DNA from: an uncultured bacterium
GTDB taxonomy: Bacteria; CSSED10-310; CAZUFC01
NCBI GenBank assembly: GCA_964619725.1
Contig: CAZUFC010000007.1
Coordinates: forward strand, 1 to 64,000
Reading direction: 5' to 3'
Length of the DNA stretch: 64,000 nt
The translations under genes were made by a program, and so were the position numbers. The notes under the pieces were generated by a model. The model made no database searches and had not been told where the DNA came from. It saw nothing but the letters and a program-made list of their open reading frames with translations. This document shows positions 25,080 through 63,601 of the stretch, piece by piece (within the stretch, counting starts at the first letter, position 1; each line of letters opens with the position of its first letter).

Positions 25080-28000
25080 TTACTGAATTACTTGTTTTTT
25101 TTTAAACGCAGCGGCCATGCAAACCGATATAAGGAGAATCACGATCGCCAGGACGCTTGTGGAAGCGGCAGGAATCTGGTGCTGCTGGGGTATGGTCGGC
25201 GTGGGAGTGGGCGTCGGCGCCGGCGCGCCGCTGCAGTCGTAAACGAATTCGCCGTCAATGACGTTGAATCCTGCCGTATGATCTTTAAGCTCGGATATCG
25301 TAACTGCACTTCGATCACCTTCTTCGCAACCGTCGCATTTAACCCGGAACCTTAGTATCGCGAAATCGCCTTCGGCATTCTGAGAGACCTTTGCATCGGG
25401 ATCGAATCCCCCGATTCTGACAACGCCCGGTTCGATACGGTTGCCGGCGAAGAATTCGAAACCGGAAATCAGGCCGGTTTTGCGGCATGAATCGTACTGA
25501 AGCATGTTCGGATCGTAATGTACTTCAAAAGCGAACGCTTCTATGTTTCTCTGCCCGTTTTGCAGTCTGACGGCCGTTTCTATGTAATCGTCGTTGCAGC
25601 CTTGCGCATCGGAAACGGTGATCGTTCCGCCCGCGGGTTCGGGCAGGGACAGGTCGGACATGGACATGAACCTTCCTGCTTCTGCGGACTTCTGCACTTC
25701 GTGCACGCAGTCGCAGTCAAGCATCAGGTAGTGCAGGAATATGCATTGACCGTCTCCGGGCGACACCTGGTCGTTGCCGTTGCAGTCGGCCGAGCAGAGT
25801 TCTTCATAAGTGGGATGCGCTATGTACATCAGGTAAATCTTGTAGGCCATGAGCGCGTCGTAGGGGGTCATGCTGAAGTCGTTGTTGACGTCTCCGTCGT
25901 GTATGCAGCCGGGCGGGCAGAGATCGTCCTGGGGATATCCCAGCCAGGGTTCGTATATGACGTATCCCCAAATTTCATCGCCGCCGCCTATTCCCCAGCC
26001 GGAAGGTCCGTCGGAAGCGCCCCACCAGTTGAAGTCGGCCCGTACTGGTCCGTCCAGGGCTTCATCGTCCACGATGAGACCGTACTGGTCGTTGTTCGCT
26101 ATATTGTTGTATTCGATGAAGCCGCCCGGCATGACGTAAGGTCCGCCGTAAGGACCCGATCCTGAAAACACGTATATGCCTTCCGCATTGTCGGTGATGT
26201 CGTTGCACATCATGGTTATGTCTTCTATATCCCATAACCGTACGGCCTGACCTTCGCCTTCGTCGCCCTGGCTGACTCCCGTTATCGTGTTGTCCCGGAC
26301 TTCCGCTTCCAGCGCATGGTTTATCTCCAGCGCGGCTATGAAGTCGCCGGACTGTCCCTGAATGCCGCCTATGTTCTCCCAGACGTTGTCCCGCACCTCA
26401 AGATGAGTGATTTTGTCGCCGTGATTGCCCCTCAGAGCCACCGTGCCGTTGCAGTCATGAATGTGATTGCCTGTGAAGGTCACATGCGTCAGTTCGTACT
26501 CGTTTTCTCCGTCCCATCCCGGCACGGACGGGTCCGTATCGAAAACGGCGCCGCCCAATATGTTTTTGAATTCCGTGTCGGTCACCGTCAGCGTTCCCGT
26601 CAGCCTGTTGCCGTAGAACCCGTGCCTGTGGCTCACGTTTTCTCCGTCTATGACGCAGTCGTTTATCGTCAGGTCCTTGATTATGCCTGAATTAGTCAAT
26701 TGAACCACGCGGTTATATCCGGCGTATCCTTTCAGATAGAGATTTTCGATGGTCAGTCCGTCCAGCGCGTAAATGTTCTGGAATTTTAATCCTCCGTCAA
26801 TGACTGGACGATTTTGCGCATCGCCTCTGACGGTGATTCCCGTTTTCTCGAATCCCGTATCGAAAAGCACAGTCTCGGAATAGGAACCGGGATTCACAAG
26901 AACAAGTCCGCCTGAAGAGACAGCGGTCACTGCTTCCTTGACCTTTGCGAACGCGTCGTACCCGAAAGTGTATCCCGGACCCACTATTTCGCCGGGAGCG
27001 CTGCCGGTCCAGTCGTCGTCAACATTGACCGTATTCGGCTGCGGGGTTGAAGTGGACGACGGCGTGGAAGTCGGGGACATCGTGGGCGTCCGTGTAGGCG
27101 TATAAGACCCTGCGGGCGTATCGGTCACGGTAGCGGTCGGCGTCGAAGTCACCGTGGGCGTGGGGCTGACCGTCGGCGTCAGGGTTACTGTGGGCGAAGG
27201 CGTCGCCGTGGGGACAAGGAGCTCAAAATCACGGTTCACAAGTATATTGCTCATCACTTCTAGGCCGGTAAGCGTCTGGGGAGAATAACCGGAAGCTCCG
27301 GCTGTCACGTCGTATGTCCCGTTCGGAAGATGTTCGATACGATAATAACCGTTCTCGTCCGTTCCGTCTGGATCATGATAACCGCCGCTTGCGGTCACCG
27401 ATGCTCCCTCGAGCGGATCAAGCGTGTCGCCGTCCCTCACATAGCCGGTTATGCCGCCGCCTACCCTGAAATTCCAGTTCCACTCCGGACAGTCGTAACA
27501 ATTGGAATAATTGCCCGTTTCATGCGCTTCCACCTTCAGTTGAATGTCCGGAGAACCCGAAGGCACAGTCCAATACCATGTATGAAACTCCTCGTCGTTA
27601 TGATCGAAAACCACGTTCCAGTCTTCGCCTTCGGCATGGCTGTCCCATTCGACCGTTCCCGTATCACCGTCCGTATCAATCTTCAACGTATAAGTCGTTT
27701 CATATTGATCGAAAGGATGAGGATTCTCGCCTCTGACCATGATCCTGGCCGTATCGCCCGGATAGAAAACCCTCTGAGACTCTCCCTGAAGGTTCAGAAT
27801 ACTCACCGACTGAACACGCGGGTCAAGATCAAACGTTATCTCGTCGCAGAAATGAGGAAACGTCTGAGCTATCGCATCGGCCTGCGCCTGGTCTTCCGCA
27901 CAGACGTACGTCGTGGTCGAATCAAGCGTTATCATGGCCATTGAATTGGTCGTCACGACATAATGGCCGCCGTTGAAATGCTGCGTTCTTATCTCGAACC

Positions 28001-31000
28001 GGTTGCCGGCAGTGCCGTTCGGATTCACGTTCAAAAAGACGGGATCGAATGAAAAACCGTAAGTCCCGCTCGGTATCATATCGTTCAATTCCGCGATAAG
28101 ATGACCGTTCACATATAAATCAATGTAATGCGGCCTTACATCGGAACGGGGCGAAAAATGCGTATAAATGACCGCACGGGTTACCTCTTCCATGCCGACC
28201 GATACTCTGAATCCCATCGATATTCGCGGCCGGTTCGTGCAGAACCAGCCCGACATGCCGTAGCAGAATTCCGACCCCGGAACCGTCGCGGCATAGATCG
28301 ATTTCGGCGCTTCACATTCGTAGGTCAACGGCAGAACGACCTCTTCCCCGCCCGCCGTCGCCTTCAGCTCCCCGGACAACGTGCTCTCACCGGGACTGAA
28401 TACCGGTTCGGCCTGAAATTCGACGTACTCCGCATGACCCAGACGATAATGCTCCACCTGCGGGATAAACAACACGCGTCCCAGCAGGCCTCCCTGGTCA
28501 GTCACCGACAGGTCCGTCAGGGTATCTCCGTCGTTCGATACTCTTAACGTTTTAACCAGGGTCGTTTCGTCTTCGCTCTCTTCCGTCATGGCGTAATCTA
28601 CGTTGGGCCATATGACTTTAATCAGCGTCGGAGCGCAATCGGTAATCGGATCGGACTGTTCATTTGCGGTAAGGCTTACGACTATGTCTTCAAAAATAAC
28701 ATGTCCCTGTCCGTCCACAGGTTCAACGTCCTGAGCGTGAATCACCAGCTCCACCTGCTCGCTTTCGCCCGGACCCAGGACTATCGTTTCGTCTTCGCTG
28801 CCCGGACCCGTGAAGTTTACAATCAGCTCCCCGTTCGGATTATCTATGCTCAATTCCGCTTCATGTCCTACAACATCGTCGTTGCGAACCGTTACCGAGG
28901 CATGCTGATCATAGTCGCGGTCCACGACGAACACATAATCGTCGCTCGTAAATACCACGCCTTTCCTCGTGTGGAAAGTCCACACCTGCGTGTCTGTAGT
29001 CCCGCACAACGATTCCGCATGCACATACCATATATAAGTTGTACTCCGTTCAAATCCCTCCACTTCAACGCTGTGGAACTTCTGATCGGAGCCCATGGAA
29101 ACCTCCGTCCAGGCTCCCGGACCGTTTTTGCGATAATACAGGGTCGTATCGCTTTCCGCTGACGTCCGGCAACTGAACGTTATGTCGTTGCTTGCCGTTT
29201 TGGCATCGTCTTTCGGATATCTGAGCGATACTTCGATGCTCGAGGTTACTTCCAGTTCGCCGTCTGCAGCAAAATCCTGTCCCATTTCCTGGGATGCCGC
29301 ATGGAACTGAAACGGATAATCACCCGTATCGCCGCAATCGGAAGAAACGTCCACGGAGAAAATGCATACTTCAGAGTCGCCTGCGTTGACGAACATCTGC
29401 GCAGGATTGACGTCATACCAGCTTACAGGCAGAGAACCCGTCACCGACATGTCGAACGTATCCGGCCCGTAATTGTCGTTAGTCAATGTAACGAAATAAT
29501 AGGGATTGGTTCCGACGGGAGCCGACTGAAGTTCCGGCGAAAGCTGCAATCCCACCTGATCGGGACAGTAAAGAATAGGAACTGTGCGTGCGCCGGTATT
29601 ATTCCCTTCATCCGTTTCGGAAACTTCATCAAGAACGTCAGCCGCCGCTGAACAGACATATCCGCATACGGCAGTCCACGTCTGATAAACAGTCGTCGTC
29701 TCATCCGGCGACAATCCCGGTACTGTATGATCGTCACCGATCTGAACAGCTCCCGTACCGTCGTCTTCGTAAAACCTTACGGTAAAGGAACCCGAAGAGG
29801 CATCACCCCGGTTCCATATCCGAAGACTTAACGTCGTCGTCTGATTTTCCTCGGGATTCACAGGATCGAAACCGATATATTGGTTTTTGACCACCAGGTC
29901 GGGTCCCGGAGTCGGAGTATCCGTTGGCAAAGGCGAAGCCGTAAAGGTGCTGCTGGCCGTCGGAGTAGGACTGAGCGTCGGCGTGTTCGTCACCGTCCTG
30001 GTCGGACTCAGTGTCGGCGTCGAAGATAAAGTGGGCGTGGCGCTAAGCGTGGGCGTCTGAGTCACGGTCGGCGTATTGGTTATCGTCGGGGTCAGCGTCG
30101 CCGTCGGTATAAGCAGATTGAAATTACGGTTGATCAGAACTTCTCCCTGAACTTCAAGGTCGGTCAGAGTCTGAGGAGCATATCCCGATGCCCCTGCCGT
30201 CACATTATACGTTCCGTTTCTCATTCTGTTTATTTCATAGTAACCGTTTTCATCCGTACCGTCCGGATCGCGATATCCACCGCTCGCCGTTACCGATGCC
30301 CCCTCAATCGGCTGCTCCGTATCCTCATCTTTCACATATCCCGTTATGCCGCCGCCTACGCTGAAGTTCCAGTTCCAGCCGGGACAATCCCAGCATTCGT
30401 CGTAATCCTGAGCGTTATGCGCTTCCACCTTCAGACGGATCGACGGATGTCCCGAAGGAACCCTCCACGACCACGTATGAAAGTCCTCGCTGTTGTGAGG
30501 CAGTATCACGCGCCAGTCGGACGCTTCTTCGTGACTGTCGTAATCCGGTATGTCGTCCCCGTCCGTATCGATTTTTAAACTGTATTTTACGTCGTAAGTA
30601 TCGAATGGATGAGGATTCTCCGCTCTCACCTCCACGTTTACCGTCTCATCCGGATAAAAAACCCGGCATGGATTCCCGTAATCATCCAGTATTCTTATCG
30701 TCTGAACCCTCGGATCAAGATCGAAATCATACTCATCGCAATTATGAGGCAATATCTGCGCTATCGCTTCTGCCTGCGCCTCGTTCTCCGCGCAGATGAA
30801 GGCAGTTGTCGGCTCAAGCATCACGACGGCCAGCGATGATGAAGAGACGACATAATGACCGCCGTTGAAATGCTGCGTTCGTATGCTGAAAGTGTTTTTC
30901 GCCGTCCCTCCTGGATTCTCGTTTAAATAGGCCGGATCGAATGAGAATCCGTATGTCCCGCTCGGCACTATATCGTTCAGTTCGCCGATCAGATGATCGT

Positions 31001-34000
31001 TGATGAAAAGGTCTATGAAATGAGGCCTTACATCCGAACGCGGATCGAACGACGTGTATATCGCCGCAGCCTCCACCTCTTCTATCGCCACGGACGTCCT
31101 GAATCCCATGTTGATGTTGGGCCGGTTCGTGCAGAACCAGCTCGCCATCGAATAACAATACTCCGATTCAGGAACAGCCGTTTCATATATCTCCTTCGGC
31201 GATACGCATTCGAAAATCACCGGCAATTCGCTCTCCACTCCCGCAGCCGTCGCCTTCAACGTTCCCGAAAGCTCCGTATCGCCCGCATGAAATAACGGCT
31301 CCAACTCAAAGTCAATGTGATGATCGCGTCTTAAAAGGAAATGGTCCACGTTCGGCAGCAACAACACGCGGCCCAACAGTCCGCCGTGAGCCGTCACGCT
31401 TACATCCGTCAACGGATCGCCCTCATTCTGAACACGCATCGTCTTCACCAGCGTATTCGGGTCCTCGCTCTCCTCGCTTAACGTAAAATCTATGTCAGGC
31501 CATCGCACGTTTATGATCGTCGGAGCGCTGTCCGTGATGGGCTCCCCCGACTCATCAGCAACCAGCGATACCGTTATGTTGGAAAAACGCACATTTTCCG
31601 GCTTCGATCCATCACTCTCCACGTCCTGAGCATGTATCACCAGCTCAATTTCCCGCGTCTCTCCCGGAGCCAGGTACACCGTCTCCTCCTCGCTTCCCGG
31701 TCCTACGAAATTAACGATCAGCTCGTCGTTGGGATTCGTTATCGACAGCTCCGTTTCGTGCTCAATCACATCTTCATTCTTCACCGCAACAAACCGTTGT
31801 TGATCATAATCACGATCCACTACAAAATTGTAGGCATTCTGAGTGAAAACCACCCCGTTGCCCACGGAAAAATGCCGTACGCCCGTGTCCATATCCCCGC
31901 ATTGAGACTCAAGATGGATGAACCATTCGTAATTTTCATTGCGGGACAGATGCATCACGTCGACCTGATGATCGGTCGTATTTGATCCCGAAGGCAGCGT
32001 TATCCAGTAAGTCGCATCCGTTTGCTTGTAATACAACGTTCCGTCGCAGGCCGCCGACGTCTTCCAACTGAACGTCACGTCGCGGCTGCCCGTGGTCGTC
32101 CCATTCGCCGGAAAACGCTGGCTTACGCTCAACTGTCCGTCAACCTCCAACTGAGCCGTCCGCACATAGTTTATCCCCATCTGGCGCGACGATGCCACAA
32201 CCTCAAACGGATAATCGCCAATGACGGAACATGTATCCGGTATCTCCACCGTAATAATGGCTATGCCTGCGCCGCCCGCTTCGATCTCCAGTTCCGTCTG
32301 ATCGATCTCATACCAAGACGGCGGCAAGGAACCCGTAAGCGTCAAATCGAATATGTCCGCCCCTTGGTTGTCGTTCAATATCAAAATTAAAAACCATGTT
32401 TCATTCCCCACGATGCCCGTACCGATTTCGGGCCACAGCCAGTAAGTTATCGCCCCCTCGCAATAGTTTATCGGCACATGCCTCCAGGCCGAATTGTTCG
32501 ACTCCTTCGATTCCTCCACATCATCGTAAACGTCCGCTTCAACCTTCACCCTTGCATCACATACAGCAGTGAAAGGTATCGATACAGTCTGCTCGTTACC
32601 CGGCGATATGTATCCCAGAACCTTTTCACTTCCGATCTGGATGTACCCCGCGCCGTAATCAGCATAAAAACGCACCGTGCAAGGTCCCGACGTCGCTGAA
32701 CCCTCGTTGTGCACCGTCGCCGATAATGTCGTCTCCTCGTTCTCCTCCGGATAGGAAGGATCGAACACTATGTCGCCGCCCGATATGACCAGATCAGGCC
32801 GGGGAGAAGGGGTATCAGTAGCGGTCGGAGTCACCGTCCACGTCGGAGTATTCGTCCGCGTCGGCGATATCGTCGGACTCCGCGTCGGCGTCCGGGTCGG
32901 ACTCCGGGTCGGGGTCTTCGTCGGCGTTCGAGTCGGAGACAACGTTGGAGACAATGTCGGCGTCCTCGTCGGTGATCTCGTCGGCGATATCGTCGGCGTC
33001 TTCGTCGGCGTGCGTGTCGGCGTACGCGTCGGCGTGAGCGTTATCGTCGGCGTCTTCGTCGGCGAACGGGTCGGCGTGCGCGTTGGAGTTAACGTCCTGG
33101 TCGGAGTTCTCGTCGGCGTTCGCGTCCGCGTCGGCGTCTTCGTCGGAGTCCTTGTCGGGGCAACTCCCAGATTTACGTAAGCTGCTCCCGCATCCGTCCC
33201 GTGATCATCATCGCCTATCGCTCCCATAATTATGAAACTGCCCGATATGTGCACCGAATAACCCAACTGATCGCCGCCCTGACCGTCATACGCTATGTAT
33301 TTCGCATCCTGTATCCAGTTGGAACCGCTGCGACGGAACTTGTAAGCAGAACCGGAGTTTCCTCCGTTGTCGTCATCCTGATACGCCCCGATGACCGCAT
33401 AATCGCCGTACAACTGAACCGAGAACCCAAAAAAATCTTCGCCCGATGCATCTGATGCCGTTATCTTATCCTGCTGAGACCAAGTCGAACCGCTTCGGAC
33501 AAAAACGTAGGCGCTGCCTGAACTTTCTCCGTCATCATCGTCAAAAGGAGCCCCTATTAAGGCATAACTTCCATAAATTGATACAGAACGGGCAAAACTA
33601 TCTGAACTTGTCCCGTCAGATGACTGCAGCGTATCCTGAAGAGACCAGCTCGATCCGCTTCGGACATATACATAGGCAACGCCGACGTCATATGCATAGG
33701 GAGACCCTACGATCACATAACTCCCGTAAATATCTACTGTCCATCCTGTAAAAACCAAGTTTTCCGGAGGATAAAGCTTCTGCTGCAACGACCACGTGGA
33801 GCCGCTTCTGTAATATACATACGCCGATCCGAAATAGTTGGGATCAGATCGATCGAAGGGAACTCCAACAACAAAGTAATCCCCATAAATGGCCACAGAA
33901 TATCCCATAAGCGTTGCCTGAGCCGCGTATACCTTGTGCTGATATACCCAACTGCTGCCGTTCCATCGGTAAATGTAAACCGATCCGTAGGCATTTCCCC

Positions 34001-34367
34001 CAAGCTCATCATCGCCCTGTGCGCCTGCTACAATGTAATTCCCATATATATCCACAGAGAATCCGAAATAATCTTCAGCCTCTCCGTCCGACGGAACAAG
34101 TTTCTGAAACTGGGACCACGATGAACCGTTATAATGATAAACGTAAACGGAACCTGAATTCTGCCCCTTGGGATCATCCTTATAGGCTCCCACCACAGCC
34201 CAATTGCCGTACACCGCCGTTGAATATCCGAAATTGTCGCCGTTAGAACCGTCCGATGCCGTCAGCTTGGCTGCCGCTTCAGTCGATCCGGCGAAAAAAG
34301 TCAAACTAAAGAGACTCAATATGATAATCGCTGATACTCTCAATTGAAACCCCCTTGGATCATGCAA
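25080..34367 (-). CDS. Giant (3095 aa) surface protein: FG-GAP beta-propeller, P/T linkers, duplicated ~900-aa CARDB/Fn3/unknown/CarboxypepD-reg module, right-handed beta-helix, dockerin-like + cohesin-like domains, IPTL-CTERM-like anchor
   Basis: Signal peptide; seven FGYS...VVGA..DD...GSAY repeats; PDLV...NEG...E.NN CARDB twice; NWWG..GPSG; DGDVNND...[30 protein letters not shown]. Confidence 0.82.
32805..33160 (-). repeat. Low-complexity (TPTR/TPTK)n linker-coding repeat
   Basis: gtcggcgt-rich tandem units encoding [10 protein letters not shown]...; similar tracts at ~29905-30105, ~27040-27210, ~23035-23235 and ~20420-20640. Confidence 0.9.
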
Positions 34368-46253: not shown

Positions 46254-47075
46254 CTAGTTATTGATATGAGAAAAACTCTTCTGAGAACTCTGTCCCATGA
46301 AACCCATTCCCGTGACATATTCATAAATCTGCTGCTCTTCTTCTTCACTCAGGTCGCCGGATTTCATTTTGTCCTTCAGCGCATAAAGATCGCCTAATTC
46401 CACCTTCTGCTCGCTTTTCGTTCTTTTCGACCCCGGCCCCTTGATTATGTCTATTTCTCTCGCCTGGGCCGTTTTCCGCTCCGGTTTTCTCTCAACGACT
46501 TCAACATCCTTTTCCGCTTCCTTTATCATCTGCTCCAGGGCCGCAATAATTATCCTTCCTTCAAGTTCGTTAATCTTCGACGCCAACCGGCTTCCGGGGT
46601 CCTTAGACGATATGCTCCAGGCCTTCTCATATACTTCCAGCGCACTCATGTATAAACCTTCCTGAAGATAAAGGTCTCCTTTTTCAACGAGATTATCCAG
46701 CCGGCGGCTTTGCAGATTCTCGATTCTCTTCCTTACCTGCTCCGTCCTGTTCGACCCGGCACGGATAAGAAGTATCAATATTTTCTCATATTGCTCCAGA
46801 GCGGCATCATAACTCCCCTTCTCATACAAGGAATCAGCCACCGTCTTTATATTCTCGGCCTGCGCCAGAGCTTTGCATTCTTTCAGAAGACGCCGGGCTT
46901 CGTCCCGAAATTCGCTCTTCGGATGGTCCCGTATGACGCGCCTGAATTCCGCTGTCGCACGCTCATACATCCCCGCGTCCATGTAACGCTTGCCCTTGTC
47001 CAAATGAACTTTTCCGTCACAAGCAGAAAACAGGACGATACAGGCCGTCAATAAACAGTATGAAAATATTTTCAT
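46254..47075 (-). CDS. TPR-repeat lipoprotein
   Basis: Lipobox FSAC after hydrophobic signal; TPR-like helices (GKRYMDAGMYERA, ADSLYEKGSYDAA, GDLYLQEGLYMSA). Confidence 0.7.
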   Translation of the reverse strand: MKIFSYCLLTACIVLFSACDGKVHLDKGKRYMDAGMYERATAEFRRVIRDHPKSEFRDEARRLLKECKALAQAENIKTVADSLYEKGSYDAALEQYEKILILLIRAGSNRTEQVRKRIENLQSRRLDNLVEKGDLYLQEGLYMSALEVYEKAWSISSKDPGSRLASKINELEGRIIIAALEQMIKEAEKDVEVVERKPERKTAQAREIDIIKGPGSKRTKSEQKVELGDLYALKDKMKSGDLSEEEEQQIYEYVTGMGFMGQSSQKSFSHINN

Positions 47076-47116
47076 GCTCACTAATCGCCTGATGAAATTC
47101 ACGTTTATGATCAATT

Positions 47117-49615
47117 CTACAGCAATTCCGGGTCCCCGCCCGCCAGAATTTCCACCATGTAATCATGAAAATAATCATGCTCGTCGCTTATCTCTGAGGG
47201 GACTTTTTCTAAATACAAACTTCTGCCGCGAGCAATTTCCTCGCCTAAGCTCATGAGTATATTTTCATTGCTTCTGGCAGTCTCCAATTGCTCCTTGTTA
47301 TAGTTCTTTATATCAAGAAGAATCGTTCGAGCCAGTCTCTTCGCTTTCTCTCTCGCCTCCGACATAGGGTCCTGGCGGCCTGGAGGTGCAGCGGCTTGCG
47401 GAGCGCCCCTTCTCATTCCGGCTTTATATTCTGTCGATTCTTCCCGCTCAACTTCGTCTACAAGCTCAGACACCCAATCTTCCCCTTCCGTATCCGCTCC
47501 AAAATCTGTCTCCATTTTCTCTTCTTCGCCGGGCTTCTCATCCTGTAATTCTCTTTCCTCTTCTTCAAGTCCGAAATCGTATTCCTCCTCCTGCATCGCT
47601 CCTGAATACGCATCTCTCTTCTCTTCGGATTTCCCGGCTTTCTTCGTCTCATCGGTTGTGCCGATTACACCCTGTAAAAGATCGGATACCCATTTCTCAT
47701 CCCTCTTCGGCTTGTCTTGCCGGTCGCCCGCCCCTTCAGTGGGACCCATTATTTTCTCCATCCAGTCTTCCGATTCCTCTTCCTTCCGCTCCTGCCTTCG
47801 ATGTTTTCTCTTTTCAATCAAACGATTCAGCAAGTGTTCCGAACCTACTCCCTTTTCCTCGCTTTCTTCCTCTTCAAACTCCTCCGATATCTCTTCCCCC
47901 TCTTCAGTCTCCTTTTCCTCCGGGAATTCTTCTATTTCCGCTTCCGATTCCTCAACACCCGCTGCAATGCCTTCTTCAACAGCCGCCGGTTTCTCTTCCT
48001 CAGGCTCTTCCGGCTCTTCCGGCTCTTCCGGCTCTTCCGGCTCTTCCGGCTCTTCCGCTCCCTTCATTTCTTCCGCTCCAACTTCTTCTTCAACCGCAAT
48101 CCGTTCCTCCTGCTCCTCTTCGGTTATCTCCTTCGCTTCAATCGGCCCCTCTTCCGCTTCGTCTGCTTCTTCAACCTCTTCCTTTACTGCATCGGTTTGC
48201 TGCGTCGACGATACCGGTTCACTGACTTTGACTTCTTCCCTCTTTTCAACGACTTCCGCTTCAACCTTTTCTTCAGCTCTTTCCTTCTCCTCATCAACTT
48301 TCGGCTCCACTTCCGCTTCAACCTCAGCTTCCGTGATCTTCTTTTCCTCCTCCTTAACCTCAATATCCTCGTCCTTTTCCTCTTCCGCTTCAACCCCGGC
48401 TTTCGCCGCCTTTTCTTCCTCCGCTTTCGATTCTTTCTGCCTGAGCGCTTCAACCGCCTCTTCCGGTTCTGCCTTCTCTTCTGCTTCAACCTCTTCAACC
48501 TTATCCCCGGTTTCCGCATCCTCGCTGGTTCTGTAGGCTATCTCAATAACCTTCTCCTTCACCGCCGGCTCTCTCTTCTCCTCTTCCTCCGTAAGCTCCT
48601 CCTCGACTTTCTTTTCTTCCTTCCCGGCAACCGGTTCTTCCGGCGTTTCTTCCGCCTGAACATCTTCCGTTTCCCTGATTTCCGCCTCTTCAGAAGTCTC
48701 CTTAACAACCTCCTCCTCAAACACGGTCGCCTGCTCTTCCTTCCCTGCCGGTTCAGATTCTTTGGCTTCCAGTTGCGCTTCCTCCGCCTCCAGCTTCTCT
48801 TCTCCCGGTTCCAATTTCTCTATCCCCTTCAGAATCTCTTCAGACATCTTGCGTTCCGCTTCGCTCTTCTCTGCGTCCTTCTCTGCTTCCTTCTCTTCAA
48901 ACGTTTCAAGCGATTTGAGCCGGTCTTCAATCTTATCGAATGAATCCAGGTCTATCTCGTCAGCTTCCTTACCGGCCTGCTCTTTGCCCAATACCTCAAT
49001 TTCTTCGCTAATTCGCCCGTAATCATCCTCCCGGGAATCAACCGTTTCCAGCTTGTCCGTTATGCTGTCCTCTAGAAATCCCCTTTCTTCGAGCAATTCG
49101 TCGATCATTTCATCATGATCTTCCGTATCCCCTGTCAGAGAAAATTCATCTCCCGTCTCTTCCACAATTTCCAGCTCTGATTCCTTCAACGCGTCCGATC
49201 CTAATTCAACCTCCGTACCGGAAACCGGAAACTCCTCATCTTCCTCTATTTCCCTTTCTGCAAACTCGTCAATCTTTCGTTCGTCCTGAAAAGAAAATTT
49301 TTCTATTTCCGTTTCAATTTCCGGCTCCGCCTCATCCTCAACTTCCAACTCTTCTTCCGCCGTCATCTCAGGCTTCATATCATACTTTTCGTGATACACT
49401 TCCGTCAGCGTATCCGCCTCGAATTCAAACTTCTCGGGTATCTCCGGATAATCTTCCACTCCAATCGAAGACTCTTCCCGGTCCAGTGCGCCGCCGCTTC
49501 TGGTTGAAGGAGTCTGCGACTCTTTTTTCGGTTTAAAAAATGTCAAAAAGAGTCCGATCAGGATCAGCAAAAGTCCAAAAAAGGCTATGATGTAAACATA
49601 ATTCATTGCGCTCAT
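47117..49615 (-). CDS. Single-TM, Glu-rich low-complexity protein with folded C-terminal RomX-like domain
   Basis: N-terminal TM, ~700 aa dominated by Glu, C-term KAKRLARTILLDIKNYN...EEIARGRSLYLEKV...YFHDYMVEILA. Confidence 0.65.
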   Translation of the reverse strand: MSAMNYVYIIAFFGLLLILIGLFLTFFKPKKESQTPSTRSGGALDREESSIGVEDYPEIPEKFEFEADTLTEVYHEKYDMKPEMTAEEELEVEDEAEPEIETEIEKFSFQDERKIDEFAEREIEEDEEFPVSGTEVELGSDALKESELEIVEETGDEFSLTGDTEDHDEMIDELLEERGFLEDSITDKLETVDSREDDYGRISEEIEVLGKEQAGKEADEIDLDSFDKIEDRLKSLETFEEKEAEKDAEKSEAERKMSEEILKGIEKLEPGEEKLEAEEAQLEAKESEPAGKEEQATVFEEEVVKETSEEAEIRETEDVQAEETPEEPVAGKEEKKVEEELTEEEEKREPAVKEKVIEIAYRTSEDAETGDKVEEVEAEEKAEPEEAVEALRQKESKAEEEKAAKAGVEAEEEKDEDIEVKEEEKKITEAEVEAEVEPKVDEEKERAEEKVEAEVVEKREEVKVSEPVSSTQQTDAVKEEVEEADEAEEGPIEAKEITEEEQEERIAVEEEVGAEEMKGAEEPEEPEEPEEPEEPEEPEEEKPAAVEEGIAAGVEESEAEIEEFPEEKETEEGEEISEEFEEEESEEKGVGSEHLLNRLIEKRKHRRQERKEEESEDWMEKIMGPTEGAGDRQDKPKRDEKWVSDLLQGVIGTTDETKKAGKSEEKRDAYSGAMQEEEYDFGLEEEERELQDEKPGEEEKMETDFGADTEGEDWVSELVDEVEREESTEYKAGMRRGAPQAAAPPGRQDPMSEAREKAKRLARTILLDIKNYNKEQLETARSNENILMSLGEEIARGRSLYLEKVPSEISDEHDYFHDYMVEILAGGDPELL
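47993..48056 (-). repeat. 9-nt tandem repeat encoding (EEP)n
   Basis: ggctcttcc repeated six times on the + strand. Confidence 0.9.
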
Positions 49616-49757
49616 GTGTTCAGCCTCAAGTTATCTTCATTTGAAAATTTTAAATATAAGAATCAAGCGCTCACCGTTCCAACAGAAAATTAACAAAGGA
49701 TTCCCCTGTTGTCAAATACGGGAAAAGCGAAAAGCGAGTCTTCATCATATCATAATT

Positions 49758-50792
49758 CTAATTCGGGGCCCTGTTTTCCCAGCAGTGATCGCAAATGGAA
49801 AGCATGCTTTTACTTCCCTTGATCATCGAATTTCTTATTTCCATCATTTTCTGTCCGTTCCAGCAATCCTCTTCGTGAATATTACCGAATTCTTTTCTCG
49901 GAATAATCACGCAACATGGAGATATATTACCATCGCCGTCAATAGTCAACATCCGGAAAGGATGCGGACAACAGGTCGTGGTCAGGTCAGGACGAACGAG
50001 CCTGGGCGGCAAAATTTCCATCGAGCCGACAGACAAGGGAATTGCGGCGATTTTCTTTCTCATTTCATTAGTATCGTAGAGACACTTTTCATGGCTTGTC
50101 ATCTCTGAGCATTCGTAAGACAAAAGATTTTGAAATAAAACGCGGTCAACTCCCAGAGTCGTACCGAGTTTTATAAAATCATTCATTTTATCATAATTAT
50201 CCGTGCTTACGACATGTGAGAGAGCTATTTTCAGTCCTGATCCTTCTTTTTCTCTTTCGGAGGCGAGAGTCTCAATCCCCTTGACGATTCTCCAGTATAA
50301 TTCTTCGGACCCTTTGCGCAGACGTTTATACCCATCAGGATCAGAAGCATCCAGGCTGACATTGAGAACATCGAGCGGAGAACGCAGCAATTTCTTTATA
50401 TTATCCTCTGTTAAGAGCGTTCCGTTCGTTGAGACGGTCGTATGAAGATCATTGTTCGACGATATTCGTATAAATTCAAACAGGCGCTCGTGCAAAAACG
50501 GCTCGCCTCCCACCAGGCCGATGGATTCAGCAGAACGGTTCTCCGCTGTGAATTTTTTAAACATCTCAACGGTCATATCCTGAAAAGGCTTTTCAGGTCC
50601 GAAATTCGAATGCGAGGCGAAAGGACATGTGTTGCAGCTCATATTGCAGCGATGAGTGATAAAAGCCATCAATTCCAGGGGTCTGTAATTCAATCTGGGA
50701 GAATCCGTCCCAAAAATTTTGCGCTTCATCCGGTTCAGAAGCTGCCGACGATTCAATCTCCCGGCCAGAGCCAATTTTGATCTTAAACCCAA
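49758..50792 (-). CDS. Radical SAM protein with SPASM/twitch domain
   Basis: CNMSCNTC, GGEPFLH, STNGTLL, VSLD, CPHPF...DGNISPCC...GNI...CDHC. Confidence 0.88.
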   Translation of the reverse strand: MGLRSKLALAGRLNRRQLLNRMKRKIFGTDSPRLNYRPLELMAFITHRCNMSCNTCPFASHSNFGPEKPFQDMTVEMFKKFTAENRSAESIGLVGGEPFLHERLFEFIRISSNNDLHTTVSTNGTLLTEDNIKKLLRSPLDVLNVSLDASDPDGYKRLRKGSEELYWRIVKGIETLASEREKEGSGLKIALSHVVSTDNYDKMNDFIKLGTTLGVDRVLFQNLLSYECSEMTSHEKCLYDTNEMRKKIAAIPLSVGSMEILPPRLVRPDLTTTCCPHPFRMLTIDGDGNISPCCVIIPRKEFGNIHEEDCWNGQKMMEIRNSMIKGSKSMLSICDHCWENRAPN

Positions 50793-50842
50793 ATTTCTCC
50801 TCCGTATGAAAACTGCTCACAAGCAGACGGTTGAATCGCCTG

Positions 50843-51319
50843 TCATCCTGCCGCCGTTATCAGGGCCGTGAACCATCCCGCGGCCATGAAGGGGAGAAAA
50901 GGCGCCCTGATCTCCCCACAATCCCTTTTAACAAAAAAGCGATTTAAATACCAGATAAAATGAATGAGCGCTGCGGCAATGAATGCGACCGGTATAAAGA
51001 GCCATGGAAACGCGGGAGGATGACAGCAAAAGATCAGAGCAATGGAGGCTTTCACGTCTGCAGGATGAACAAGTCCTGAAAATAGGTAGAAAACAATGAC
51101 AAGAGCAGAAAAACCAAGCGGAGCCAGAAAGGAACTTATATTTTTCTCATCGGTCAGATAAAGAAAAATCGCCATCAGGAATATGAAAAACCATATCCCG
51201 TTTGAGAATTTCCTGAATCTCCAATCCTGGATGCTTCCCCACACCAGCAAAGCCGAGACGATAATCTTGACCGTGGTTATCGACGACGGCAAATCGTTTA
51301 ACGTTTCATCACCCAACAA
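50843..51319 (-). CDS. A24-family (TadV/CpaA-like) prepilin peptidase
   Basis: Hydrophobic; QDWRFRKFSN and PADVKA supply the two Asp motifs; C-terminal PFLPFM. Confidence 0.55.
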   Translation of the reverse strand: MLGDETLNDLPSSITTVKIIVSALLVWGSIQDWRFRKFSNGIWFFIFLMAIFLYLTDEKNISSFLAPLGFSALVIVFYLFSGLVHPADVKASIALIFCCHPPAFPWLFIPVAFIAAALIHFIWYLNRFFVKRDCGEIRAPFLPFMAAGWFTALITAAG

Positions 51320-51402
51320 GCATTATCCCCAATTTTGCGTTGTCCTTCCACATGGAACCTTCAGCATGCCGTCTCCGTTTTTATTCCCCATTAACAGCAA
51401 CA

Positions 51403-52476
51403 TCAACAGCAATCGCAACAGAACGTATCAATAGCCCAGCATGCGCAAAGTTGCTCCACGCATCGATCAGACTCCGAATAACGTTTTCCGCAACACATCC
51501 TTGAAAAACATAAAAACAGAAAACAGCATGCTATGCAGCCGCCGCATTCCTCTATGATGCCCTCCTGGGCCGTCAGAAAATGTCCGATCCGGCTGTTGAA
51601 CACCGGGTCTGTTTCGGGCAGCTTTTTCGGAAGATGAACAAGCAGCGAGCTATCGAATATTCTTTTGCATATTTCATAATTCGGCAGCTCCGTTAACTCA
51701 TCCCATAAGGAATTCAGAATCGTCATCTCTTTTTCAAAGGCTTCTCTGATCGGCCTTATGTCCACAGCCATCACATCTTCGCTGATCTGAAGCGTAAAAC
51801 AATTTAAAACCGCGTTGAAATAACGCCTTCTGACATCCTTTTTAAAATCAAGACAGGCGTCCAGCAAATAAATCATCCGGCCCAGGCGCTTACCGAACTC
51901 TCCCAATACTTCAACCGTCCTTGAAATAAAACCTGCCCTCACGCCTGACGCTTGCAGAATGTATTTTAAGCCTTCAGCGGAAGATTCAGCATAAACTTCA
52001 TATTGATCCCGGTCATCTTTTTCATTGCTCGCCTGCTTCCTGAACAATCCGTGAAGCCTTTTCATATCCAGTCCGCAGCTTTCCTTCACTCGGGTCTTCA
52101 TCCTGTCGAATGTCCTCCCGTAAAAACGATAAAATAACTTGTCCCTTAAACCGCCCCTGTCTTCAATGTGATCAATCGCCTTAAAATATCCCAGAAGAAC
52201 GCTCATATCGGCAGCCCTGTCGAACATCGGATCAGACAGACTTACGGATATCTTTCTTAAAGGATTAACAGGACACTTTCCACGGAATTCGACAAATGAA
52301 GCCTTCGCGTTGGACGTCAGCAATGATGTGAAAAGCGCATCATGACTCGTCATCATAGCTGCCTTGCCGCCGTAACGGTTTCTTAATGCGCTGCAGACGC
52401 TGCAATAATATCCCCTGTATACTTTTTGAAAATCTTTTTCGCCGGCGGGTGTTCGAGGTTTTAAAAAACCATACAT
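51403..52476 (-). CDS. DUF5685-like protein with Cys-rich C-terminal tail
   Basis: MYGFLKP...YRGYYCSVCSALRNRYG, CPVNP, KAIDHIED, GRMIYLLDACLD; 14 Cys in last 47 residues. Confidence 0.7.
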   Translation of the reverse strand: MYGFLKPRTPAGEKDFQKVYRGYYCSVCSALRNRYGGKAAMMTSHDALFTSLLTSNAKASFVEFRGKCPVNPLRKISVSLSDPMFDRAADMSVLLGYFKAIDHIEDRGGLRDKLFYRFYGRTFDRMKTRVKESCGLDMKRLHGLFRKQASNEKDDRDQYEVYAESSAEGLKYILQASGVRAGFISRTVEVLGEFGKRLGRMIYLLDACLDFKKDVRRRYFNAVLNCFTLQISEDVMAVDIRPIREAFEKEMTILNSLWDELTELPNYEICKRIFDSSLLVHLPKKLPETDPVFNSRIGHFLTAQEGIIEECGGCIACCFLFLCFSRMCCGKRYSESDRCVEQLCACWAIDTFCCDCC

Positions 52477-62041: not shown

Positions 62042-62344
62042 CTAACCGTTCAACTTCCTTACCAGCCGGAAGACTACACCCGGATACAACGATTCTATTT
62101 TCACCAGCACCCTGTCTCCCTTTCGCATCCGCGCCCGGAAACGGGCGACCACCCAGAAATCTTCAAAACGTAATGCCGCTCTCTCCTCGTCCAACAATCG
62201 CACCACATAACCGGACAGATAGTCCCCTTTTTTGAGACATAATTCATCCGCTTCCATTTTTTCATTGGTTTCGGGGTCTCTTAATGGTCCGCCGTGGACT
62301 TTCAAGCCGGTCTTCCCCGATCCCGTAAATACACGTCTATCCAT
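62042..62344 (-). CDS. Hypothetical small beta-barrel-like protein
   Basis: Co-oriented ORF in flagellar region; LKKGD.LSG.VV...KGDRV.VKI....P.VVFRL. Confidence 0.55.
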   Translation of the reverse strand: MDRRVFTGSGKTGLKVHGGPLRDPETNEKMEADELCLKKGDYLSGYVVRLLDEERAALRFEDFWVVARFRARMRKGDRVLVKIESLYPGVVFRLVRKLNG

Positions 62345-63129
62345 TTGTCCCTGGTTTCCATTCGTATCCAGAATCCGGAATTGTATTTCCCCCCGCCGGA
62401 TATGCTGTATTCTGAATCGTCGATAGAACGGACAATTCTGTCCAGACCGTCCACATCATCCAGTGAAATTGAGTGTTCGGTTTTATTCTCTGTGCTTTGC
62501 TGTCCGTCAGAGTAATATTTCTGCAGCGCCTCCTGAAGCGCTGAGTCGTCGGTCACCAGGATCGACAGTTCGACTCTCAAAACAGATTCGATAAAGTCTA
62601 TAACCTCTCCATTGCCCGGATTCTCCATTACCGCCAGCAGCCTGTTGTGCCTCCAGTCCCATTCCAGGGGCAAAATTCCGGCATTGAGAGCAATGAACGG
62701 CGGTATCATCGCCAGCGTCTTCGCAGGAATATTCACCCTACGGACATCGATCCACGGCAGATTGTACTGCTTGCTCAAGGCAAGCGTTATATCACGCTCC
62801 TCAGCCAGTCCCATATCGACCAGTCGTCTGCCTATCTTCTCTTCCTTCCCATCCTCGTTTTTTAAAACCATGTCCAATTGCTCACCCGATATCTTCTTCA
62901 TGACAAGCAACTGCTCCCCAATCCTTAATTTAGGCTCTATCCTTCTTTTTCTTCTGTTTACGGACAATCCCGCCGATATCTTTTCCCGGATATAATTCAG
63001 TCGGCATTCCCGGGAGCAAAACCACATCCCTTCCCATTCCTCGCCTTTTCTCTTTGAAAACAGTCCGGCCAGACCCATAGATCGTTTTCCCGGACACTTC
63101 TCGTTACTGCATTTCCTGATCGGCATCAT
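62302..63129 (-). CDS. Stand-alone MshEN/T2SSE-N domain protein with N-terminal Cys motifs
   Basis: CSNEKC...WFCSREC; RIGEQLL...KIGRRLVDMGL...LALSKQY; LP.ID...IP...A....LP...MENP; no ATPase domain. Confidence 0.7.
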   Translation of the reverse strand: MMPIRKCSNEKCPGKRSMGLAGLFSKRKGEEWEGMWFCSRECRLNYIREKISAGLSVNRRKRRIEPKLRIGEQLLVMKKISGEQLDMVLKNEDGKEEKIGRRLVDMGLAEERDITLALSKQYNLPWIDVRRVNIPAKTLAMIPPFIALNAGILPLEWDWRHNRLLAVMENPGNGEVIDFIESVLRVELSILVTDDSALQEALQKYYSDGQQSTENKTEHSISLDDVDGLDRIVRSIDDSEYSISGGGKYNSGFWIRMETRDKWIDVYLRDRGRPA

Positions 63130-63601
63130 CTTTCGAACATCCTTGTTCATTCTCGGACAGCGGCGTCAGTTTTCTGAAAAATTTCTGGATCATCTCCACC
63201 TCCGCACGCGGCCTGTCTAAATTCTCAGCTATCTCCTGCGTCGTACATCCCTTATCCGTCATTGAACGCACGTCAGATAAGAATCCGTTCCCCTTACTAG
63301 ACAATAATTCGTTGTCGCCTCCCGACCTCTGCTTCACCATCTGACCCGCTAACGACAGTTTAAATTCCACTCCTTCACTCACCTGCTCGATCTTCTTTAA
63401 CTTCCTGTTCAGCCTTTTCTCCGCCTTGACCTGCTCCTTCAATTTCTCCTCCACCAGATGAGAAGCCTCTATCAGCCTCTCCTCCAATGAACCGTTGCGC
63501 CTTATGCTGAGAATCAAACCTGTTATCGTTATGCATGTTATTATGATTAAAGCAGTAATATTTACTGCCAGCATCCATGCCTGTAAGCCGTCCATAATCA
63601 T
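63104..63601 (-). CDS. TM + coiled-coil protein with C-terminal HTH-like motif
   Basis: N-terminal TM, coiled coil, G.TTQEIAENLDRPRAEVEMI. Confidence 0.65.
   Translation of the reverse strand: MIMDGLQAWMLAVNITALIIITCITITGLILSIRRNGSLEERLIEASHLVEEKLKEQVKAEKRLNRKLKKIEQVSEGVEFKLSLAGQMVKQRSGGDNELLSSKGNGFLSDVRSMTDKGCTTQEIAENLDRPRAEVEMIQKFFRKLTPLSENEQGCSKDDADQEMQ

Follow-up and report, generated by a model that had tools for sequence, protein, structure and literature searches.

To our knowledge, work on RomX has been confined to its role as the small partner of RomR in Myxococcus. The response regulator RomR determines where RomX sits, and its receiver (REC) domain is held by L75/R76 of RomX helix 3 and by W87; mutation of R11, R14 or D19 in helix 1 abolishes MglA-GTP binding or exchange, the RomX-facing acidic patch of MglA in the model of the complex comprises E108, E111 and E115, and RomX itself is monomeric (10.1101/2024.02.20.581209). 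The same report describes response regulators in which Zn-ribbon, REC and RomX-like domains are combined. Two further systems are close in one respect each: in HubP and FimV a membrane span is followed by a very long acidic stretch in the cytoplasm, and a small, conserved helical domain at the C-terminus recruits partners (PMC12918733), and orphan MglA proteins, with no coupled MglB, were counted as 59 of 449, of which only SofG of M. xanthus and the MglA of Bdellovibrio were characterised (PMC4316618). Here we describe an open reading frame (ORF) of 832 amino acids (aa) in a stretch of 64,000 nucleotides (nt), referred to below as the window, from an uncultured bacterium of the GTDB lineage CSSED10-310 (assembly GCA_964619725.1, contig CAZUFC010000007.1, positions 1 to 64,000; genome of 9.17 Mb in 344 contigs, 90.9% complete). 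The protein starts with a transmembrane (TM) helix, continues through a very long acidic linker and ends in a domain of the RomX family.

The C-terminal three-helix bundle belongs to the RomX family both by sequence and by fold. When the last 94 aa were compared with all PDB chains using phmmer, M. xanthus RomX (8ZNA) was found at E 1.7e-7 over 71 residues (query 15–85 against chain residues 4–74), with the next match at E 1.1. An AlphaFold2 model of these 94 aa, built on a 25-sequence alignment, had a predicted local distance difference test score (pLDDT) of 90.7, and Foldseek ranked 8ZNA first for it (prob 1.00, TM-score 0.75/0.76, 32% identity; next match E 4.1). A wide search with VIA, an aligner independent of Foldseek, gave the same chain at Z 12.3, with 80 aligned residues and a root-mean-square deviation of 2.3 Å, and 8ZNA was the sole chain with Z ≥ 8 among 48,161. 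The VIA runners-up, Sey1p (Z 6.7) and atlastin (Z 5.9), are the structural neighbours of RomX according to its authors too (10.1101/2024.02.20.581209). Pfam and NCBIfam gave no family above threshold for the whole 832-aa protein, nor for its last 94 or 114 aa.

RomX is a free protein (the solved chain has 95 residues); the domain described here, by contrast, forms the C-terminal part of a much longer membrane protein of 832 aa. The ORF starts with ATG, with GAGG 8 nt upstream of the start codon. Six uncharged residues precede the TM helix, which we take to be an anchor and not a cleaved signal peptide, because there is neither a charged n-region nor an AXA site. Lys or Arg follows such a helix directly in about 22 of the 24 relatives that have one (by reading of the aligned rows, and leaving P0016, a TIR protein, and P0149 out of the count). 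The linker makes up 85% of the protein: its 703 residues are 32.7% Glu and 6.5% Asp (39% Asp+Glu) against 12.8% Lys+Arg, giving a net charge of −186. When the last 232 aa were modelled with AlphaFold2, confidence was confined to the ~85 C-terminal residues, and residues 601–747 had a pLDDT of ~46–59. Taken together, the product would be a bitopic inner-membrane protein with about six residues outside. An earlier note on this DNA, made from the letters alone, had described an N-terminal TM helix followed by KPKK, a very long Glu-rich region with an (EEP)6 repeat and a folded C-terminal domain at 47117–47370, which it likened to RomX. The helix and basic cluster are there at residues 7–27 and 28–31, the Glu-rich region and its perfect repeat are as described, the domain lies within 4 nt of the position given, and the likeness, for which the note had suggested the Foldseek comparison, is borne out by sequence and fold alike; the genome also encodes an MglA homologue, which the note had supposed.

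The protein has only three tryptophans, all in the last quarter of the linker and each within a short acidic amphipathic motif (~616–624, 641–652 and 712–724). The last of these motifs aligns with the same motif in the relatives P0044 and P0107 and in a protein of genome G057; in the AlphaFold2 model of the last 232 aa it is undocked on the domain, the pLDDT of the motif region being below 50.

The MglA-facing side of the domain is kept and the RomR-facing side is not. R11, R14 and D19 of RomX align in the phmmer alignment with R760, R763 and D768, all three helix-1 residues being retained in the same fold at 31–32% identity. R760 does not vary among the 25 aligned sequences, and R763 hardly does. 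On the RomR side, read by extending the sequence and structure alignments, L824 is retained at the L75 position; the R76 position is occupied by A825, and the chain ends four residues short of the position of W87. RomX is placed through the REC domain of RomR; of the residues that make this contact, the protein described here lacks R76 and W87.

The proposed partner on the kept side is present in the genome. One MglA was found, in a 330-aa ORF whose residues 1–193 align ungapped to M. xanthus MglA (5YMX, E 1.7e-74). It has the intrinsic arginine (Arg53, in G2) and the TVPGQ motif (in G3), the pair that defines group 1 MglA (PMC4316618), and at the positions of the acidic patch it has D108, D111 and E115. 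Like SofG and the MglA of Bdellovibrio it has no coupled MglB. Unlike the orphan group 1 examples, it carries a C-terminal extension of ~125 aa, consisting of a linker, acidic or Pro-rich, and of a beta-rich block (~40 aa) that is conserved, and no Roadblock protein was found genome-wide. Among relatives of this MglA (L023–L034, L050), 11 of 12 have an amphipathic polybasic tail resembling a membrane-targeting helix; the genome's own MglA keeps the beta-rich block without the polybasic tail. PilM and 25 PilB/PilT-family ATPase matches above cut-off show type IV filament systems to be plentiful in this genome, and type IV filament systems are a usual output of MglA.

The other members of the Myxococcus module were not recovered. 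The Roadblock/MglB family (PF03259) has no match in the genome at its 90.9% completeness, no MglB-like gene adjoins mglA, and 8 of the phylum's 13 other genomes, by a count of rows, gave no Roadblock match either. RomR consists of REC, a Pro-rich linker and an acidic tail. The screen for it was crude, using a self-built REC profile and no RomR reference sequence: the genome has 100 REC matches, and none of the 35 REC ORFs whose tails reach 100 aa or more has a RomR-like tail. The 832-aa ORF holds the only RomX-like domain found in the genome. The genome search for mglA, mglB and romR that the earlier note had proposed thus returned one mglA, no MglB match and, within the crude screen, no RomR-like protein; with the RomR-contact residues missing as well, its assignment of the locus to a RomR/RomX-type module as such is not supported.

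We believe it rather likely that the 832-aa protein is a membrane-tethered, RomR-independent docking or exchange factor for MglA-GTP, one that probably holds active MglA at the membrane. Using helix 1 in the way of M. xanthus RomX, the RomX-like domain would bind the one MglA of the genome in its GTP form, and it might in addition stimulate nucleotide exchange. In this way active MglA would be concentrated at the membrane, possibly at a pole, and the TM helix and linker, fused in cis, would replace RomR in its placing role, which fits with the loss of the RomR-binding residues. The acidic linker, repelled by the membrane, may then serve as a long spacer or leash, or as a scaffold.

The distribution of the domain agrees with such a partnership. 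Cut-offs chosen in advance (E ≤ 1e-5 for the profile of the domain, E ≤ 1e-25 for that of MglA) were applied to 201 sampled genomes, of which 48 have the domain and 86 have MglA: both are present in 44, the domain alone in 4, MglA alone in 42 and neither in 111 (two listings compared). MglA is therefore found in 44/48 genomes with the domain and in 42/153 without it. Leaving out the phylum of the window, the figures are 31/34 with and 42/153 without, with a Fisher p of 4e-12. This value is too favourable, as relatedness makes the genomes less than independent, though they come mostly from different families. Within the phylum, 14 species were sampled: that of the window and 13 others. The domain is present in 13/13 of the other genomes, those read being mostly ORFs of 370–460 aa with a TM helix, an acidic region and the domain, and an MglA orthologue with the long C-terminal extension, 66–69% identical, is present in 12/13. 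The same pair occurs in another phylum, where G057 encodes a 390-aa TM-anchored acidic RomX-like protein with the same Trp motif and a long MglA with the beta-rich block.

Direct connections between the two families also exist. P0049 (914 aa) is an MglA-like G domain fused to three RomX-like domains with low-complexity linkers between, and in four genomes from three genera of the phylum a gene for an HU-RomX-like protein lies directly downstream of a second mglA paralogue. These four ORFs (177–225 aa as open frames; the three scanned match PF00216 with E values from 1e-19 to 1e-23) are listed in Table 1. With a RomX-like domain fused to an HU/IHF DNA-binding domain beside an mglA paralogue, a small GTPase and a nucleoid protein would be connected.

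The family itself is very broad. A HMMER scan of 1.84 billion cluster representatives (at 50% identity) returned 1970 proteins at E ≤ 1e-3, of which 151 reach E ≤ 1e-10. The domain sits at the extreme C-terminus behind a low-complexity linker in most of the 150 best relatives, and about 22 of these 150 have, by reading, an N-terminal TM helix followed by basic residues. Among the 102 relatives that were scanned for other domains, REC is matched in 13, some of which also have a Zn-ribbon and two to five copies of the RomX-like domain; TIR is present in two, one of these also with a kinase, and GAF is matched weakly in three. Many relatives have an N-terminal coiled coil, and some are free proteins of ~90–150 aa. 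Weak matches to PF09192 in five of the 102 relatives, all of the REC type, fall on the RomX-like domain and were taken as chance. The four relatives with names given by their source are all called "hypothetical protein", and so are the unnamed clusters with the best scores in the ESM Atlas (0.86–0.89), which we treat as leads. A tree of the domain (166 rows, 92 columns) is poorly resolved, with 22 of 163 branches starred: it groups the domain of the window with those of P0044 and P0020 (support 87) and favours neither one nor several origins of the TM-anchored form.

The Zn-ribbon/REC/RomX-like response regulators are close to what we see here in having a domain of the same family joined in cis to a potential localising or regulating module. 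They are soluble proteins, often with two to five copies of the domain, some of them (by reading) beside chemosensory genes; the 832-aa protein contains a single copy, is TM-anchored and lacks REC. In three of the genomes (G036, G023 and G031; loci L016, L017 and L020) ORFs resembling MCP (methyl-accepting chemotaxis protein) or CheW lie upstream of the Zn-ribbon-REC-RomX-like gene and a HEAT-repeat-like ORF of ~480 aa lies downstream, again by reading. The text of the report on RomX does not contain the word "transmembrane", and its lone "membrane" refers to atlastin, although its supplementary Foldseek hit list, with 302 uncharacterised hits, may hold TM-anchored proteins (10.1101/2024.02.20.581209).

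Several points weigh against the docking or exchange factor that we propose. The interface of RomX with MglA is known solely from an AlphaFold model and mutants, and the complex is weak, with a Kd of 4.8 µM (10.1101/2024.02.20.581209). The P-loop of the genome's MglA has a glycine where all 13 aligned relatives have a cysteine. The two genes lie on different contigs, the 832-aa gene on C7 and mglA on C5, and share no neighbourhood. The topology with the N-terminus out and the C-terminus inside is predicted from the positive-inside rule; the linker is probably disordered, judged by composition for residues 36–600 and by low pLDDT as well for residues 601–747. The genomes behind the co-occurrence are related and so not independent of one another, and a complex lifestyle may simply be what the domain and MglA have in common. 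Finally, the domain occurs without detectable MglA in four of its 48 genomes (G011, which is 60% complete, G047, G089 and G182), so it may have other partners, and the RomX authors read REC fusions as a conserved contact to REC (10.1101/2024.02.20.581209).

These last two points, together with the breadth of the family, its fusion to REC/Zn-ribbon, TIR, kinase, weakly matching GAF and HU modules, and the 100 REC matches in the genome of the window, would also suit a general three-helix adaptor, the partner being REC or some other protein in place of MglA and the co-occurrence with MglA indirect. We think this unlikely: it is the residues for RomR-REC (R76, W87) that are absent and those for MglA that are kept, the association with MglA is strong outside the phylum (31/34 against 42/153), and both an MglA fusion (P0049) and MglA-adjacent copies exist.

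A different question is whether the domain is the functional part at all. The polyanionic linker, with its net charge of −186, accounts for 85% of the protein and might itself be the working element, as a divalent-cation buffer or as a condensate or crowding scaffold at the membrane, with the domain only regulating or oligomerising it. The TM-anchored relatives do keep acidic or Pro-rich linkers of 150–730 aa in spite of changed sequence, and the perfect nucleotide repeat in the 832-aa ORF suggests a length that is free to vary. P0044 (628 aa) shares the layout of the 832-aa protein: a TM helix and a basic cluster come first, then a linker that is acidic or Pro-rich, and at the end the domain, 49% identical to that of the 832-aa protein. 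Sequence conservation among the TM-anchored relatives is, however, limited to the TM helix, the short motif with Trp and the domain at the C-terminus; orthologues differ in linker length by a factor of about three (from about 230 to 730 aa), a poor match to dosed buffering, and RomX is monomeric (10.1101/2024.02.20.581209), so that we regard a linker-centred function as quite improbable. The repeat needs a word of caution: Logan contigs from four DNA runs of one study match without differences, but all of them break at the EEP repeat; no RNA run is listed among those that hold the sequence. Because no contig spans the repeat, the copy number of six is without independent confirmation, and it could be variable or mis-assembled.

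The gene directly downstream was central to the earlier note, which had the protein as a polar landmark or scaffold that couples an envelope TPR lipoprotein to an MglA switch. The TPR ORF is there as described: the open frame (46254..47114, minus strand) matches TPR_11 at E 4.4e-10, and its likeliest start, 41 nt past the stop of the 832-aa ORF, gives a signal peptide ending in an LFSAC lipobox. As the gap is so short, on one strand and with no convincing terminator between the two ORFs, the TPR gene is probably co-transcribed with the 832-aa ORF. A precedent for a TPR protein as MglA partner is SgmX of M. xanthus, and the layout of the 832-aa protein resembles that of HubP and FimV (PMC12918733). 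A functional link to the lipoprotein nevertheless finds no support in the comparison of genomes. A six-frame search of the phylum's 13 other genomes at E ≤ 1e-5 returned no homologue of the lipoprotein, and the protein is absent from 19 related loci with ~1.5 kb of flank each (phmmer, E ≤ 10). Searches for further loci, with the domain in genome contigs and with an alignment in metagenome contigs, confirmed no relatives, which leaves the nearest orthologues P0044 and P0107 outside this comparison; the link is possibly specific to this lineage. Moreover, the lipobox is predicted to put the TPR protein in the periplasm, where the 832-aa protein would expose only its ~6 N-terminal residues and for which it has no peptidoglycan-binding or other periplasmic domain (Pfam, NCBIfam), whereas TPR effectors of the SgmX type are cytoplasmic. 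We therefore consider the coupling of lipoprotein and switch the least probable of the explanations given here.

The resemblance of the 832-aa protein to HubP and FimV lies in its architecture and is no sign of homology: unlike those proteins, it has neither LysM nor the FimV C-terminal domain (no Pfam/NCBIfam match). What it does offer is a natural example of a RomX domain with a membrane tether fused to it in cis, in a genome where one MglA and no MglB were detected, and a family that tracks MglA across phyla. Should the binding be true, MglA could be localised without RomR, and the pair would be a simple two-protein system in which to see how RomX-type domains read the GTP state; a function is also suggested for the RomX-like-domain proteins now labelled "hypothetical protein". 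A wider proposal, which we put forward tentatively and think less likely than not, is that RomX-like domains are a widespread and portable docking module for MglA-GTP, joined through disordered linkers to varied address labels (membrane anchor, REC/Zn-ribbon, coiled-coil/GAF-like, TIR, kinase, HU and MglA itself), and that an ancient module of two proteins, the TM-anchored acidic RomX-like protein and the long MglA with its conserved C-terminal beta block, works without MglB or RomR in at least two phyla and may fix active MglA to the membrane or pole in the manner of HubP and FimV.

Table 1. Coordinates of the 832-aa ORF, its parts and associated features (positions are those of the window unless a contig or locus is named)
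Feature	Position	Strand	Evidence
832-aa ORF (TM anchor, acidic linker, RomX-like domain)	47117..49615, stop included	-	open frame
N-terminal TM helix, residues 7-27	49535..49597	-	21 hydrophobic residues, read from sequence
KPKK basic cluster, residues 28-31, directly after TM helix	49523..49534	-	sequence
Acidic low-complexity linker, residues 36-738	47402..49510	-	composition; low pLDDT at 601-747
(EEP)6, residues 521-538; perfect 9-nt x 6.1 tandem repeat (54 nt), in coding region	48003..48057	.	
Short acidic Trp motif, residues 712-724, ~35 residues before RomX-like domain	47444..47482	-	alignment with relatives
RomX-like helical domain, residues 748-832 (approx.)	47120..47374	-	phmmer, AlphaFold2, Foldseek, VIA
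TPR lipoprotein ORF, 273 aa from ATG at 47075	46254..47075	-	TPR matches, lipobox read from sequence
Sigma-70-like promoter match upstream of 832-aa ORF	49653..49682	-	consensus match only
Terminator-like hairpin preceding promoter match of 832-aa ORF	49692-49710		consensus match only
mglA, 330-aa ORF	contig C5:75717-76706 = L021:5717-6706	-	
HU-RomX-like ORF, G005	L046:1588-2130	+	
HU-RomX-like ORF, G003	L047:2094-2636	+	
HU-RomX-like ORF, G008	L048:2044-2718	-	
HU-RomX-like ORF, G012	L049:2226-2756	-	

The promoter match in Table 1 is to be read against the number of promoter-like sites found, 5 where 3.2 were expected. Upstream of the 832-aa gene, three ORFs at 49758-52476 (minus strand) encode a radical SAM/SPASM protein, a small membrane protein that weakly matches prepilin peptidase (A24) and a DUF5685 protein rich in Cys; the trio resembles a peptide-maturation set and seems to be unrelated to the RomX-like protein. 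Further away, a giant ORF of 3095 aa (25080-34367, minus strand) contains FG-GAP, CARDB, carboxypeptidase-regulatory-like, beta-helix and cohesin domains. Genes for flagellar rod, L/P-ring and hook-associated proteins lie in the window, 4–12 kb from the 832-aa ORF, in agreement with the flagellated organism that had been supposed from the letters. Adjoining the flagellar rod genes is a 282-aa ORF (62302-63150, minus strand) with an MshEN domain (E 5.1e-11), a domain that binds cyclic di-GMP (c-di-GMP).

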